Shown here in pieces: positions 45,274 to 50,984 of a DNA stretch of 50,984 nt. This DNA comes from a phage: sequence record NC_100129.1; one strand, 5' to 3'. The notes beneath the pieces were generated by a model. That model was not told where the DNA came from. It was given only the letters and a program-made list of their open reading frames with translations, and ran no database searches. Numbering within the stretch: position 1 is the first letter of the stretch; every line of letters starts with the position of its first letter. Position numbers and translations under genes: made by a program.

Positions 45274-45512
45274 TTATTAACAACAAGCAAACGAAGGCGT
45301 GATTTGCGGAATCGGTGCGCTGTTTTCGCATACATTGCCGCCGAACTGTATCGGGCAAACTCCATAGCGAACAGGCCGAATGAATCCTCTGTCAGATATT
45401 CCCAGCGACCGCGCCAGGTGCTACGACGTTGCAGGTAGTAAACTTTGCATTCAGTGCAACATACGATCCTGTATTCTGGACGAATAAGCCGCTTTAGTGC
45501 ATTGACAACCAT
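45261..45512 (-). CDS. hypothetical protein (83 aa)
   Basis: ORF, Cys pairs (CCTEC). Confidence 0.4.
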   Translation of the reverse strand: MVVNALKRLIRPEYRIVCCTECKVYYLQRRSTWRGRWEYLTEDSFGLFAMEFARYSSAAMYAKTAHRFRKSRLRLLVVNKCDV

Positions 45513-45611
45513 AATCCAAACCTCAAACAGTGAAAAATTAACAGAACGAATAGTATCACAGCCATCGCCTTATGAAAATCAAATGGCGGCTTTGGATTAG
45601 TCGAATCGACG

Positions 45612-46013
45612 TTATTTGCCAGCATTGCGCGCTATCCCCTGGTAGGTTTTGTAAAAATCATCTCCAGGATTCTTGAACTTACAGGCGTTGCGAGCAAGTC
45701 GGCGCATACGTCGCGAATCGTATCGTGCGTTCTGGAATGGTGTTTTCATGGTCTTTATGTGACAGCCGCGATGATTACGGATTCGCTTAAGGTCTGCGAT
45801 GATTCCGGTGCTGGACTTGATCACGTAATTGTCGAATCCCAGGCTATCGGTGATGATGTAGCCGAATTTAATGCGTGGGCGCTTGTAGTTCTCCAGTCTG
45901 CCGATGTAACGGGATTGGGCGGTTACAATCTCACCACGACGAAGGCCGCATTTTTCGTCTGCCCAGGTTACGCGAAATTTTGTTCCGGTGCGGATATTGC
46001 TTAGCTCTAACAT
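45612..46013 (-). CDS. hypothetical protein (133 aa)
   Basis: ORF downstream of variant dyad motif and TATAAT. Confidence 0.5.
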   Translation of the reverse strand: MLELSNIRTGTKFRVTWADEKCGLRRGEIVTAQSRYIGRLENYKRPRIKFGYIITDSLGFDNYVIKSSTGIIADLKRIRNHRGCHIKTMKTPFQNARYDSRRMRRLARNACKFKNPGDDFYKTYQGIARNAGK

Positions 46014-46070
46014 TGTTGATTCCTATGTTTACTGAACGGGGTAAATTATAGCGGAGCATTGCGCCCCGCG

Positions 46071-46088
46071 TTTAGCAATTCGTGCTAT
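46071..46088 (-). promoter_or_regulatory. dyad motif copy, palindromic variant
   Basis: ATAGCACGAATTGCTAAA overlapping stop TAG of kinase gene; TATAAT 22 nt downstream on minus strand. Confidence 0.55.
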
Positions 46089-46675
46089 TTGATTTTTGTG
46101 AAATGCCACTGCACGGTTTCTATGATTTCCTCCACCGTCTTTTCTGGCTCGCCATCGTGCAACGTGAAATCGTAATGCTTGAGGCGGTGATGATAGTCGC
46201 CCATGTCGATATAGTTTCGCGAGTCGCCATCGAACGTGTACCCCTCGCGATGCAGTCGGCAAATGTGCACTTTGTGACCTGCTTTAATCAGTGGCTTGAT
46301 TTCTTCTGGAAAGCCGCCGTCTGTTACGATAATTGCAAGGTCGCGGTACATTTCGTGAATCTGCTCAACCATTCTCCAGCCGAAATACTGTTCCCCAAAT
46401 GCTGGCTTCATTACCTCCTCGCTAATCCAGATCATGAACTGACGCGGTGATTTGCCCTGCAATATCACTTGAGGCTTTTCTTTCTGTTCCCGGTCGTTGT
46501 ACAAGTCCATAAATTCATCGTATCTGTACACACCAAGCATGGAGAACGCAATATCGAACATTGGCTGTTTGAATGATGCCTTAACTGCTGGGTATTGGTG
46601 TCCGGTAAGGTATGCCGCAATGGTGTCCTTTCCCACTCCAGGTGGCCCATTCAGGATAATGATGTCTCTTTTCAT
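46085..46675 (-). CDS. deoxynucleoside monophosphate kinase-like P-loop kinase (T4 gene 1-like)
   Basis: P-loop NGPPGVGKDT followed by YPAVKASFKQPMFDIA, resembling T4 dNMP kinase N-terminus as recalled. Confidence 0.6.
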   Translation of the reverse strand: MKRDIIILNGPPGVGKDTIAAYLTGHQYPAVKASFKQPMFDIAFSMLGVYRYDEFMDLYNDREQKEKPQVILQGKSPRQFMIWISEEVMKPAFGEQYFGWRMVEQIHEMYRDLAIIVTDGGFPEEIKPLIKAGHKVHICRLHREGYTFDGDSRNYIDMGDYHHRLKHYDFTLHDGEPEKTVEEIIETVQWHFTKIK

Positions 46676-46941
46676 TTTCTGCTCTCCACAAAAGTAATAG
46701 TCTCAACAAGTTTTGGATTAATCATGTCGCTTCGTCTAGGCTCTATGCTTGAGTCTTTATGCAAGCATCGGCCTTGCATAGCAATTTTATCTGCAAACTT
46801 TTTGCGCACACAGTCGAAGCCGTATTCATCCAGCTCTACGTTGTAGGCGACGTCTTCGCCATCAATGGACTCAATAGCGAATAGTGAATCCCTCATGTCG
46901 ATTCTGTCTATGGCCTGGAATATTTCAATTTTGCGTGTCAT
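46672..46941 (-). CDS. hypothetical protein (89 aa)
   Basis: ORF, translationally coupled to kinase gene. Confidence 0.45.
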   Translation of the reverse strand: MTRKIEIFQAIDRIDMRDSLFAIESIDGEDVAYNVELDEYGFDCVRKKFADKIAMQGRCLHKDSSIEPRRSDMINPKLVETITFVESRK

Positions 46942-47027
46942 TTCTTCGTCTCCTCGTCTGCTGTAACAACATGATGCTTTCCTCTTTCGTTGTTGATGGG
47001 CTTACTATAAAGCAAGCCCGATGGAAT

Positions 47028-47047
47028 GCTTTAACAAAAAGTGCTAT
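47028..47047 (-). promoter_or_regulatory. dyad motif copy (reverse orientation)
   Basis: Overlaps stop TAG of small ORF 47044-47205; hairpin GGGCTTGC..TAAGCCC follows. Confidence 0.55.
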
Positions 47048-47205
47048 TTACGAACGCATAACGCTGTTACATCCTTCCCACTATCTGACATGTGGAGAAC
47101 AACTTGCTTTCGCGCTTCCAGGCATCTTGATTCGCCGTGGAACTCCTGCGACTCAATAGCTGCGGAGTTGTAACTTGTGACAAAGATTAAAAGCAACCAA
47201 GTCAT
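47044..47205 (-). CDS. small secreted/membrane protein (53 aa)
   Basis: Manually read ORF MTWLLLIFVTSYNSAA...; ATG overlaps upstream stop (ATGA); its stop TAG lies inside dyad motif 47028-47047. Confidence 0.35.
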   Translation of the reverse strand: MTWLLLIFVTSYNSAAIESQEFHGESRCLEARKQVVLHMSDSGKDVTALCVRK

Positions 47206-47741
47206 TTTAAACACTCCAAGCCGTGAGATTGCAGGTGAGCGTGTGGCTTGTCGTATTCCGTGACCTGATAGGTTGTGATCCCCAGGCTGCGGAAGTGCTT
47301 AACCACGTTCGGCGAATCGTCAAAGGCGCAAACAATGTTGCCCAATCCAATAGCGCGCAAGGCTTCTTCTTTAATAACCGTATCCTTTCGGTTGTCCTCC
47401 TGGCGGCGCATGATGATTTCGTCAAACTTCACGCCGTTCTCATTCAACCATTTGCATGTTTCATAGCGCACTTCGTCGCTGCGTCCGGTCAGGATAATGA
47501 CGGCGAATCCTGATACCCATAAACCGTTAATAACAGCAATCGTGCTCTTAATCGGTGAATCTCCGGCGGCTGCCCTGTTAAATTCGCTCCACGATTCCGT
47601 AAGGTGCAAGTTTTCGGTTGGCAGCAAGTGCAAACGATGCGATCCGTCCGATAGCGTGCCATCCAGATCAACGATAACAATAGGCTTGCTGGTCATTAAT
47701 TCGTATTTCTTGCCCCATAGTTCGAAAGTGTATTTTTTCAT
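47202..47741 (-). CDS. HAD-superfamily phosphatase (nucleotidase / polynucleotide 3-phosphatase-like)
   Basis: HAD motif I IVIVDLDGTL, motif II-like ILTGR, C-terminal Asp pair (AFDDSPN). Confidence 0.6.
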   Translation of the reverse strand: MKKYTFELWGKKYELMTSKPIVIVDLDGTLSDGSHRLHLLPTENLHLTESWSEFNRAAAGDSPIKSTIAVINGLWVSGFAVIILTGRSDEVRYETCKWLNENGVKFDEIIMRRQEDNRKDTVIKEEALRAIGLGNIVCAFDDSPNVVKHFRSLGITTYQVTEYDKPHAHLQSHGLECLK

Positions 47742-47751
47742 ATATTAATCC

Positions 47752-47934
47752 TTAAAATGTTTTATGGATGTATTCAGCAGTAGCCACAAGCAAAATGATC
47801 CATCCTGGAATACTGAAGCAGGTCATAACGAATGAATTATCATAGCTCAGTCTGAATTTATGCCTCGCACAGTGGATAAGCCACGCAAAAAGAAACACAA
47901 TCCAGCCGAGAACAAGCCGAGTAAAATCATCCAT
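47752..47934 (-). CDS. small membrane protein (60 aa)
   Basis: Two hydrophobic segments. Confidence 0.4.
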   Translation of the reverse strand: MDDFTRLVLGWIVFLFAWLIHCARHKFRLSYDNSFVMTCFSIPGWIILLVATAEYIHKTF

Positions 47935-48167
47935 TATTGCACTTCCTCAAATTCCGCGTCTGTAACCTGCTCGAACTCTGCAACTAAGTTTTCAAACGCA
48001 ACGATCTCAGTTCCATTCTCGCCGTTAAGGTAAAACTTGTATCCGTTGTTGCAGTGAACATGATAAGAGTGACCATCTCTTGTGTCCTTTTTGCCCTGAT
48101 ACACCTTTCCAGGCGTGAAGAATGGTCGATTGCTCTTAACGCAAAGAAAATGCTGTTCAATAATCAT
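47934..48167 (-). CDS. hypothetical protein (77 aa)
   Basis: ORF with GGAGATAAAAAATG RBS after variant dyad motif. Confidence 0.5.
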   Translation of the reverse strand: MIIEQHFLCVKSNRPFFTPGKVYQGKKDTRDGHSYHVHCNNGYKFYLNGENGTEIVAFENLVAEFEQVTDAEFEEVQ

Positions 48168-48219
48168 TTTTTATCTCCTTCGTTGAAAGTGAGGCCATTA
48201 TACCTGGCCCCACATTTGA

Positions 48220-48239
48220 GTTTTAACAATTCGTGCTAT
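48220..48239 (-). promoter_or_regulatory. dyad motif copy, variant (ATAGCACGAATTGTTAAAAC)
   Basis: Overlaps stop TAG; hairpin with TATAAT in loop (GGCCAGGTATAATGGCC) downstream on minus strand. Confidence 0.55.
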
Positions 48240-48454
48240 TTCTCAACACACACAGTTTCATCATACCAACCCACCATTACGACCTTTCCGACAAGGTATG
48301 TGCCATAAACTTTTTTTCCTGTCGTGTGGCACTCAAGCTGTGATGACTTGTATATATAATACCCACAAACGCTGAAAAGTATGATAAATACAGTGAATAT
48401 AGAATATGCCATTATCTTGAATATTGATTCGGCGCTCATACTTTCACCTTCCAC
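48236..48454 (-). CDS. small membrane protein (72 aa)
   Basis: Central TM (IMAYSIFTVFIILFSVCGYYIY); stop TAG inside variant motif. Confidence 0.45.
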   Translation of the reverse strand: MEGESMSAESIFKIMAYSIFTVFIILFSVCGYYIYKSSQLECHTTGKKVYGTYLVGKVVMVGWYDETVCVEK

Positions 48455-49329
48455 TTAACCATCGTTCCGCGCTTGATGCTGATCTCACCTGCAACCGTCC
48501 GGTTTTTTGCGCCGCCGTAGTGAAGCAGAAGGATAACAACATCATCATGAATCTCAATCGTCTTTGGTGTAGCCGTTAATTCATACCATGTACCATCATC
48601 AAGCTGGACTCCTTTTAGCGTGGCTGCAACTGGCATATCTTCAATTGCGCCCTGCGTTACGATTTCTTGATAGGCAAAGTCGCTCTTGTCAATACGCCAG
48701 CCTCCAGGCGCTTTCATTTCGGCAGCCGCTTTGTGGATCTCCTCGCCAATGATTTGATGAATTGACGTCTTCCCGCCGCCGAATGGTGTTTCTCCAAATA
48801 AGTGTTTTGTAATATCTTCCACGTAGTACACCTTATCTTTTTCGTTGTGTGGATTGTATCTATTGTGACCATCAACAAAGAAATCAACTTTCAACTCTGA
48901 TTTCTGACCATCGCTATAAACGCCATTGTCGCGCGATGTGAAGCGAATCGTTGAATTACCAACCGTGTAGAACGTGATCGGGTACTTGATATTGTCCACA
49001 CTTAAGCACCACAGCTTTTTGTAGTCGCATGTTTTCATCTCGACCATCTGAATCTCTGCGCGTTCCGGTGAGCGCACTGGCAACACCTGGCCTTTATATG
49101 GCTTGTAGTGGAAGCTGGTATATCCTGGCATTGCATAGCCATAGTCTTTAAGGGAGTTGTAGTGCGTATTGTGTGCATCAATAAAGTGTTCAATCTCAAT
49201 TGTTGATGGGCTTAGTTTGTCGCTATTCATATCAACCTTATGGCATGTTTTTTCATCGGTAAAAATGTAATGACCAATGCCGCGAGATTCGAATGTGATC
49301 GGGAATTTAATGTCAGCAAGTTTTAACAT
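48436..49329 (-). CDS. hypothetical protein with internal tandem duplication (297 aa)
   Basis: Two ~95-aa N-terminal repeats (KFPITFESRGIGHYIFT / KYPITFYTVGNSTIRFT) plus Gly-rich C-terminal domain; function unknown. Confidence 0.55.
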   Translation of the reverse strand: MLKLADIKFPITFESRGIGHYIFTDEKTCHKVDMNSDKLSPSTIEIEHFIDAHNTHYNSLKDYGYAMPGYTSFHYKPYKGQVLPVRSPERAEIQMVEMKTCDYKKLWCLSVDNIKYPITFYTVGNSTIRFTSRDNGVYSDGQKSELKVDFFVDGHNRYNPHNEKDKVYYVEDITKHLFGETPFGGGKTSIHQIIGEEIHKAAAEMKAPGGWRIDKSDFAYQEIVTQGAIEDMPVAATLKGVQLDDGTWYELTATPKTIEIHDDVVILLLHYGGAKNRTVAGEISIKRGTMVKWKVKV

Positions 49330-50151: not shown

Positions 50152-50613
50152 TCATTTCTCCTCGTTAACAAGATTGCGGATCATTTCCTGGTAGCGGCTT
50201 ATTCCTTCGCAAGCTCCAGCCAGTTTATCGCCTTGCATATCGGTAACGTTCGGCATTGATGCAAGAATGCGCGCGGCGAATTTTTCCACCGCCTTTGCCT
50301 GGACTGCTGGCAAGTCCTCGCTCGTTATCACCTTGCGCTTAACGTCGCGATTCAGCGTTAGCACATACTCTTTATTGTCGTCAGTTTCCTCAGTCCTGAT
50401 TCGCACCGCGCCAACCGCTTTAACTTCCGGCACTCGGTTGATGATAGTGCGGCTGTATGCCTGGTTTTTGGTGATCTTGTAGTAATCGTCACCGCTTAGG
50501 CTTGATGCCAGGTCGGTAAGCGAGATCCTAAACTCTGAAAACTCACCACTTGCCAGGCGGCGGCCAATTTCCCGCAGCCATTCGCAATAGTCCTTAGATG
50601 TCTTTTGATTCAT
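50152..50613 (-). CDS. hypothetical protein (153 aa), first gene of long minus-strand unit
   Basis: ORF with AGGAGG RBS adjacent to the large non-coding control region. Confidence 0.5.
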   Translation of the reverse strand: MNQKTSKDYCEWLREIGRRLASGEFSEFRISLTDLASSLSGDDYYKITKNQAYSRTIINRVPEVKAVGAVRIRTEETDDNKEYVLTLNRDVKRKVITSEDLPAVQAKAVEKFAARILASMPNVTDMQGDKLAGACEGISRYQEMIRNLVNEEK

Positions 50614-50984
50614 GGTTAGCCTCCTGTTGACCAGTTGCCGCCCATTATAAGTGCCTTTTAATTAGTGTCAATGTTTATTTTGTCCGTATAACGTTCGCGT
50701 CCTGTTCGCGTTGCCGACGTTTTGAGATAATCGCTACATAACCACATGATTTGCAATAAGTTTTTGCCGCTTGTTTTCTTTCTGTTCGCGCTGTTAGCGT
50801 AATATCGCAATAAAAGTATATATACATACTCATTCCACCAGGCGCGCAACTATCCATATATATACCAACAAAGCGACACCGCAACCATCACATACCACAC
50901 TAACAACGCTAACAAGAAATAACACATAAATATATACATAAATAAATATTCTTTATTTTCAATGTATTATAAGGGATTTATTTT
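50614..50984. other. large non-coding control region at window end (continues at 1-360 if circular/permuted)
   Basis: Three GTTCGCG repeats (50693, 50704, 50784); inverted copies at 56-62 and 66-72; A/C-rich tract and second copy of AT-rich element near 50935. Confidence 0.6.

Follow-up and report, generated by a model that had tools for sequence, protein, structure and literature searches.

Two minus-strand genes of a T1-like phage genome, encoding a HAD phosphatase and a P-loop deoxynucleoside monophosphate (dNMP) kinase, on balance probably form a deoxynucleotide-handling module that recycles the breakdown products of host DNA rather than repairing RNA. The window, i.e., the whole stretch of DNA analysed (NC_100129.1, 50,984 bp), is essentially the complete genome, and by sequence the phage is placed in Drexlerviridae, Tempevirinae, Warwickvirus, among the T1-like phages; the best megablast match of positions 45600-48200 is Escherichia phage MatMar (98.2% identity, 100% coverage), with 123 phage records matched. 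The two genes are listed below in the direction of their transcription.

47202-47741, minus strand: HAD phosphatase, 179 amino acids (aa); evidence: open reading frame (ORF), Pfam, PHROGs
46085-46675, minus strand: P-loop dNMP kinase (DNK), 196 aa; evidence: PHROGs, homology

A sequence-only reading of the window had already proposed both genes, and neither is a chance ORF, as seen from their PHROG and Pfam matches and from thousands of phage relatives. The kinase belongs to an experimentally characterised family, and the finding is largely ordinary in this respect. New here are the recognition that the phosphatase is mis-annotated; the intermediate placement of this protein, between the Pnkp phosphatases and T5 Dmp, a characterised deoxynucleoside-5'-monophosphatase and anti-Kongming factor; the strength of the HAD-DNK synteny; the existence of HAD-DNK fusions; and indirect evidence against the role of an anti-Kongming Dmp for the HAD protein.

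The kinase and its characterised homologues

The kinase carries the motifs GPPGVGKDT (residues 10-18), a P-loop invariant across 31 homologues, and YPAVK (residues 28-32). It matches phrog_139, 'deoxynucleoside monophosphate kinase', at 2.6e-50; T4 gp1 (from NC_000866) is assigned to the same PHROG, over the same profile region. Alignment of the 31-sequence profile of the kinase family with T4 gp1 (hhalign) gives E 2e-5 over the N-terminal 73 columns, a stretch that includes the P-loop, YPAVK/YSAVK, DRE, and GKSP. In the Foldseek comparison, the TM-score of the kinase to 1DEK is 0.71, with T4 dNMP kinase at the top of the structural ranking, and tblastn with T4 gp1 as the query reaches the kinase ORF at E 0.014. 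Searches of Pfam, NCBIfam, and PDB, both with the single sequence and with the 31-sequence profile, yielded P-loop-level matches only (e.g., AAA_18, adenylate kinase, guanylate kinase, p97), which are sub-threshold in Pfam and NCBIfam. Because the curated libraries see only the P-loop, the link to gp1 required PHROGs, hhalign, and the fold comparison. The resemblance to T4 gene 1 noted in the sequence-only reading hence stands at the level of profile and fold, but does not extend to the Pfam model DNMK (PF21448), which is matched by T4 gp1 at 3.1e-107, and by neither the window kinase (at E up to 1) nor the kinase of phage Rao1 (R1DNK). Assignment to the zeta-toxin or another P-loop family, named in that reading as the competing identity, was rejected, as no better match was found in Pfam, NCBIfam, or the structural ranking. 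Relatives of the kinase are present in 1463 phage records (tblastn), and the family profile retrieves 3983 clusters (50% identity) at E up to 0.001. No Pfam model exists for this T1/Rao1-type DNK family, and no Pfam domain is assigned to its homologues.

The window kinase is 85.7% identical to the DNK of KarlJaspers (Bas06), 45.2% to R1DNK, and 40.7% to the VAC2 DNK. These proteins are of the same family and length and share the motifs ILNGPPGxGKDT, SFKxPMF, DRExKE, RxFMIWISE, DGGF, RLHR, and GDSR. All three trigger the Kongming defence, with toxicity resulting when they are expressed together with it (Zeng et al., bioRxiv 10.1101/2024.12.20.629578); for the KarlJaspers DNK, this toxicity implies ATP-dependent conversion of dNMPs to dNDPs. 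According to the same work, dAMP, dGMP, dCMP, and dTMP are all phosphorylated by R1DNK in vitro, and the dATP level in infected cells falls when the enzyme is deleted; the K15A substitution is inactivating, while R61Q and L136P are changes found in Kongming escapers (bioRxiv 10.1101/2024.12.20.629578). Residues K15, R61, and L136 of R1DNK correspond to K16, R62, and L141 of the window kinase; R62 does not vary across the family, and L141 hardly varies. Given this close homology to tested DNKs, with the critical residues kept, we regard the assignment of the window kinase as a broad-specificity dNMP kinase of the T1/Rao1 type, distantly related to T4 gp1, as settled by homology.

The differences from T4 gp1 are considerable: the identity is 16-18%, the window kinase is 45 aa shorter, and the DTR motif of gp1 is replaced by DGG in the window kinase. 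The specificities differ as well: R1DNK accepts each of the four dNMPs, while the GenBank annotation of T4 gp1 names dTMP, dGMP, and hm-dCMP as substrates and excludes dAMP and dCMP. There is no basis here for the suggestion, in the sequence-only reading, of modified dNMPs or an unusual DNA composition: the Pfam scan and the MatMar and KarlJaspers annotation revealed methyltransferases of the Dam and Dcm types alone, and no genes for hypermodification. Kongming hijacks phage dNMP kinases of exactly this type to make the dITP alarm signal, and the phage is therefore predicted to be Kongming-sensitive.

The HAD phosphatase and its relation to Pnkp and T5 Dmp

The HAD protein has the sequence DLDGT at residues 25-29, in agreement with the DxDGT motif reported in the sequence-only reading. 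It matches phrog_415 at 2.5e-66 and Pfam HAD_PNKP (PF25109) at 5e-21 (75.7 bits, with the gathering cut-off at 27.6); the Pfam model of class B acid phosphatase (nucleotidase) is also matched above threshold. Relatives are found by tblastn in 3009 phage records. Both in sequence and in structure, the HAD protein best matches the phosphatase domain of Pnkp from T4 and that of Pnkp1 from Capnocytophaga (PF25109; 1LTQ, 5UJ0, 4XRP), with 26-28% identity. Shared with these proteins are the HAD core, the DxDGT nucleophile/acid, both phosphate-binding arginines, and motifs II-IV. Residues D165, D167, R176, R213, D254, and D278 of T4 Pnkp, which we take from the mutagenesis literature to be essential for the 3'-phosphatase, are all conserved in the HAD protein, and so are T169, S211, K258, and D277. 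The Pnkps differ in having a fused 5'-kinase domain and a partner ligase, both missing for the HAD protein, which has an added N-terminal beta-hairpin; the setting of Pnkp is RNA repair, while the gene context of the HAD protein is nucleotide metabolism. There is no P-loop and no kinase domain in its 179 aa.

Taken together, the HAD protein can be described as a stand-alone phosphatase domain of the T4-Pnkp type with intact catalytic residues, and is predicted to be an active Mg2+-dependent phosphomonoesterase. The widespread label 'polynucleotide kinase' for this family, used for such HAD proteins, e.g., in PMC11447400, is wrong, since the protein has no P-loop.

A more distant relationship connects the HAD protein with T5 Dmp. 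Both are HAD phosphatases with motif I of the form DLDGT..HR followed by an insertion, and T5 also encodes a DNK; in T5, however, dmp and dnk are far apart and temporally separated, whereas the window HAD and kinase genes are co-oriented neighbours. T5 Dmp falls into phrog_415 (3.6e-57), like the HAD protein, while T4 Pnkp falls into phrog_505. Comparison of the HAD family with the Dmp family by hhalign gives 91% probability and E 1.1e-6 over 144 columns; BLASTP of the HAD protein with T5 Dmp aligns only 17 residues, covering motif I. The insertion behind the motif-I arginine has 14 residues in the HAD protein and 18 in T5 Dmp, and is absent from the Pnkps aligned and from Pnkp1; in the multiple alignment, the stretch behind this arginine is 24 residues long in the HAD protein, 28 in T5 Dmp, and 10 in two Pnkps. 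The insertion site is common to the HAD protein and T5 Dmp, although the length and sequence differ, and within the HAD family the insertion is almost invariant.

The C-terminal half of the HAD protein is Pnkp-like and has neither the insertion between motifs II and III nor the C-terminal extension of ~60 aa seen in Dmp. A hidden Markov model (HMM) of 18 Dmp homologues does not match the KarlJaspers and Rao1 HAD proteins at E up to 0.01 (the window HAD protein was not in this set). Among the HAD homologues, 120 of which were listed, the Pfam domain is PF25109 and never PF26880; the latter is borne by each of the 42 homologues of Dmp. Orthology of the HAD protein to T5 Dmp was rejected, given the negative HMM search (made on the KarlJaspers and Rao1 proteins) and the restriction of the BLASTP alignment to motif I, with profile-profile comparison and PHROG membership as the only links; the protein would rather sit between the Pnkp phosphatases and T5 Dmp, in a distant relationship to the latter and not as a clear orthologue. 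In addition, Rao1, which has the HAD gene gp57, is strongly restricted by Kongming, with dAMP up 2-3 fold, and is rescued by T5 Dmp in trans (bioRxiv 10.1101/2024.12.20.629578). This is indirect evidence that the HAD protein may not be an effective anti-Kongming Dmp.

Linkage of the two genes and the role of the pair

Synteny was analysed in 80 viral contigs encoding a relative of the window kinase. The HAD gene is found upstream of the kinase gene, on the same strand, in 71 of the 80 loci, and is always upstream where present; both gene order and strand are kept down to ~45% kinase identity. The gap between the two genes in these 71 loci is <=25 bp in 19, 26-210 bp in 14, 211-600 bp in three, and longer in 35. 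The HAD-DNK pair is carried by both T1 and TLS, with TLS Gp09 and Gp14 listed as these two genes (PMC11447400). KarlJaspers has the same layout as the window (bas06_0071 to bas06_0076). In Rao1, gp57 (58% identical to the window HAD protein) lies 49 bp upstream of gp58, encoding the DNK, while two small ORFs intervene in the window lineage. T1-like genomes already carry an annotation of the pair, to which a role in 'enhancing nucleotide supply' has been ascribed (PMC13164509).

In the escaper table published for Rao1, one Kongming-escape mutation deletes 13 bp of the gap between gp57 and gp58 (L086:38453-38501), and another is a point change there. The location of these mutations indicates that the Rao1 DNK gene has its own promoter despite directly following the HAD gene.

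In some cases, the two domains are fused. The 403-aa protein P0298 (L093:5001-6212) consists of a HAD domain at residues 3-149 and a DNK domain at residues 210-393; it was found on three contigs, one of them a 60.7-kb phage-like contig with NinH, Dam, and PAPS-reductase genes. The same HAD-then-DNK arrangement is seen in the 461-aa protein P0304 (L094:498-1883). The linkers in the HAD-DNK fusions are 60-100 aa long. The co-orientation, frequent adjacency, and occasional fusion fit consecutive or tightly coordinated steps.

The contexts of more distant HAD genes point in the same direction. In the T4-like phage Krischvirus PHB13, a 45%-identical HAD gene (L091:4998-5474) overlaps nrdB, to which it is translationally coupled, in the row td-nrdA-nrdB-HAD, and a full Pnkp and an RNA ligase are encoded 4 kb from this stand-alone HAD gene. 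In the T7-like phage Bonnellvirus megetsur (L092:4001-5099), a 50%-identical HAD gene overlaps, and is coupled to, the gene of a dATP/dGTP diphosphohydrolase (PF18909, 4.7e-33) and is preceded by exonuclease, endonuclease, and phosphoesterase genes. These two contexts favour nucleotide metabolism and disfavour RNA repair.

No companion RNA ligase had been seen in the sequence-only reading, and this was borne out by every search made. Ligase families are absent from the best 25 of the 48 Pfam families matched by the 71 ORFs, and from ten large or unannotated ORFs that were re-scanned; the annotation of the 98%-identical MatMar genome contains no RNA ligase; tblastn of T4 RnlA against the window gives E 0.18 or worse, with no corresponding search for T4 Rnl2; and KxDG motifs are confined to the primase, portal, tail, scaffold, and Dam ORFs. 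The kinase domain of T4 Pnkp (residues 1-150) has no match in the window or in the 80 related loci, and no tRNA genes were found in the whole genome. An RNA-repair system was rejected, as these searches of the window gave neither an RNA ligase nor a Pnk-type kinase domain, nor any tRNA gene. The synteny, the fusions, and the contexts of homologues support the sequence-only reading in preferring a role in the nucleotide pool to one in tRNA repair; for the HAD protein we infer this role.

T1 and TLS degrade the host chromosome and re-use its nucleotides (PMC11447400). In the window genome, no DNA polymerase and no nucleotide-synthesis enzyme besides the pair were found in the Pfam scan of 71 ORFs and in the MatMar annotation. 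The kinase, judging from its tested homologues, would convert dNMPs released from host DNA to dNDPs, which host Ndk would then convert to dNTPs. The HAD protein would act on the same nucleotide pool, and not in RNA repair; in the reading that we prefer, it would strip the phosphates that make breakdown products unusable. Candidate substrates are deoxynucleoside 3',5'-bisphosphates or DNA fragments ending in a 3'-phosphate, with the 3'-phosphate as the group removed, and the products would be 5'-dNMPs, i.e., the substrate of the kinase. Operonic and fused enzymes usually perform consecutive steps. Removal of a 3'-phosphate is favoured because of this operonic or fused pairing, because of the Pnkp-like catalytic half, and because the Rao1 homologue neither stops the rise of dAMP nor protects against Kongming.

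Several observations weigh against this reading. The HAD gene is missing in nine of the 80 close loci, and DNK genes without a nearby HAD gene are found in Kuravirus, Chaseviridae, Vequintavirus, and a Vibrio podovirus, where the neighbours are exonuclease, dUTPase, ThyX, or RNR genes; the HAD-DNK coupling is lineage-specific. Deletion of dnk in Rao1 has no apparent fitness cost in the laboratory (bioRxiv 10.1101/2024.12.20.629578), hence the salvage role may be dispensable. The insertion behind the motif-I arginine leans to a 5'-nucleotidase-like cap; the AlphaFold pLDDT is <50 for HAD residues 30-63, which include the insertion. The literature found holds no enzyme assay of a T1-type HAD protein, and its substrate is one that we infer. 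Finally, E. coli and phage exonucleases mostly release 5'-dNMPs and leave 3'-OH ends, so that any source of 3'-phosphorylated deoxynucleotides would be hypothetical.

The main alternative, of appreciable weight although on the whole doubtful, is that the HAD protein is the equivalent of T5 Dmp. As a 5'-deoxyribonucleotidase, perhaps specific for certain bases or for non-canonical nucleotides (dIMP, dUMP, m6-dAMP), it would drain or edit the pool of dNMPs, and would be a valve against the kinase and a counter to defences that sense signals derived from dNMPs, e.g., Kongming or PUA-Cal-HAD. The shared phrog_415, the profile-profile match, the insertion behind the motif-I HR that the Pnkps lack, and the match to the class B acid phosphatase model all agree with such an enzyme, and so do the reported co-occurrence of Dmp homologues with DNKs, the coupling of the Bonnellvirus homologue to a dNTP diphosphohydrolase, whose product is a 5'-dNMP, and the sensing of dAMP-derived and m6-dAMP signals by host defences. 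It is harder to reconcile with Rao1, which is still Kongming-restricted with gp57 intact, shows the rise of dAMP, and is rescued by T5 Dmp in trans; with the failure of the Dmp-family HMM to detect T1-type HAD proteins, and the separation of PF25109 from PF26880; and with the missing motif II-III insertion and C-terminal extension. Moreover, a 5'-dNMPase co-transcribed or fused with a dNMP kinase would create a futile cycle, while T5 expresses the two at separate times. Rather unlikely, in our estimation, is a further possibility that HAD and DNK, fused outright in some phages, make up a single, dedicated unit with two functions, analogous to Pnkp at the level of mononucleotides (a Pnkp-type phosphatase with a gp1-type kinase, in reverse domain order), which would choose the breakdown products that become dNDPs and those that are destroyed, and so control the dNMP-derived danger signals (dAMP to dITP, m6-dAMP) read by Kongming/PUA-Cal-HAD. 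m6-dAMP from phage-induced chromosome degradation triggers another defence (preprint 10.64898/2026.01.15.699771), and control of dNMP species could, speculatively, matter for immune evasion.

The pair could also be seen as a split Pnkp, with the HAD protein removing 3'-phosphates from broken DNA or RNA, the P-loop protein phosphorylating 5'-OH ends, and a host ligase sealing them. We consider this distinctly unlikely: the best matches of the HAD protein are indeed the phosphatase domains of end-healing enzymes, all residues for the T4 3'-phosphatase activity are present, and the kinase-plus-phosphatase make-up, fused forms included, mirrors Pnkp; but the kinase homologues are proven dNMP kinases, no ligase was found in the genome, and Krischvirus keeps its stand-alone HAD gene by nrdB despite having a complete Pnkp and RNA ligase elsewhere. 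It is highly improbable that the early region is a mosaic in which the two genes lie side by side by shared ancestry only, with no functional relation, since order and strand are kept in 71 of the 80 loci, to ~45% kinase identity, and two independent fusion proteins exist; this is so even though the two genes lie 3 bp to 2.2 kb apart, with insertions of unrelated small ORFs, each gene is also found without the other, and the Rao1 DNK has its own promoter.

The HAD family is large and conserved, and counts among its relatives the T4 3'-phosphatase as well as the T5 5'-nucleotidase, the latter an anti-defence enzyme. Its substrate would show how polymerase-less phages manage the flood of nucleotides from host-DNA degradation, and also whether phages tune the dNMP signals sensed by host immunity. 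Should the HAD protein prove to serve salvage alone, the analysis would be of value chiefly for the annotation correction.

Small ORFs, spacer, and early-region features

Other features of the region are as follows.

47044-47205, minus strand: small ORF, 53 aa from ATG or 56 aa from GTG at 47214; phrog_5579
46942-47043, minus strand: structured intergenic spacer, 102 bp; RNA folding
46672-46941, minus strand: 89-aa ORF; phrog_25318
46051-46069, minus strand: terminator-like GC-rich hairpin with a weak T-tail, right behind the kinase stop codon; pattern scan only
50644-50671, minus strand: perfect sigma-70 consensus promoter, TTGACA-16-TATAAT, 12/12; pattern scan only
48226-48197, minus strand: weaker promoter-like site; pattern scan only

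The sequence-only reading had a single small signal-peptide ORF between the two genes. An ORF with a hydrophobic N-terminus is indeed present, but the count was wrong, as the 89-aa ORF had been missed and there are two ORFs. The 53-aa ORF has hydrophobic residues 1-11, a possible cleavage site SAA|I, and two Cys; a signal peptide at its N-terminus is plausible. Stop/start overlaps of the form ATGA are seen at the junction of the HAD gene with the 53-aa ORF and at the junction of the 89-aa ORF with the kinase gene, and through the former overlap the 53-aa ORF is predicted to be translationally coupled to the HAD gene. The HAD gene itself is preceded by an AAGGA ribosome-binding site. The 53-aa ORF matches phrog_5579 at 5.5e-9, and the 89-aa ORF matches phrog_25318 at 3.5e-6, both PHROGs being without an assigned function; the small ORFs are annotated in MatMar and KarlJaspers. 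They are real genes, but variable accessory filler rather than members of the HAD-kinase module, since the 53-aa ORF is present in only four, and the 89-aa ORF in 13, of the 80 related loci.

The spacer at 46942-47043 folds with -27.6 kcal/mol (z -3.68) and contains a 9-bp hairpin with no T-run; no Rfam match was found in 45500-48500. In MatMar, two extra ORFs are inserted at the spacer site, and the megablast alignment splits in two there.

Many HAD homologues are 93-97% identical to the window protein, yet have 236-264 aa (P0122, P0123, P0138, P0149, P0154, P0166). The long homologues have an extra C-terminal domain of ~57 aa, sometimes with a CxxC...CxxC insert, behind a repeated GVE(S/E)(I/L)K junction. 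The possibility that the 236-aa homologues are fusions with the 53-aa ORF was rejected, as their C-terminal domain differs; small downstream modules seem to be fused and unfused by recombination at the GVE(S/E)(I/L)K junction.

The consensus promoter at 50644-50671 is a candidate start of a leftward early unit of small genes that would include the HAD and kinase genes. Elsewhere, the gene content comprises terminase, portal, capsid, and tail genes, the Erf/exonuclease VIII/SSB recombination set, primase, helicases, and a lysis cassette. Just upstream of the HAD gene, in the same direction, lies a 297-aa ORF (48436-49329, minus strand) with a match to phrog_7116 and none to Pfam, which appears to be internally duplicated (IKFPITFESRG... 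/ IKYPITFYTVG...). Of the 71 ORFs scanned against Pfam, one has a match to PF25180 ('Phage antiviral trigger protein Gp54', 3.7e-38), and several others match recently defined families, i.e., DUF7174 (50152-50613), DUF7421, DUF7444, DUF7180, and DUF7299.

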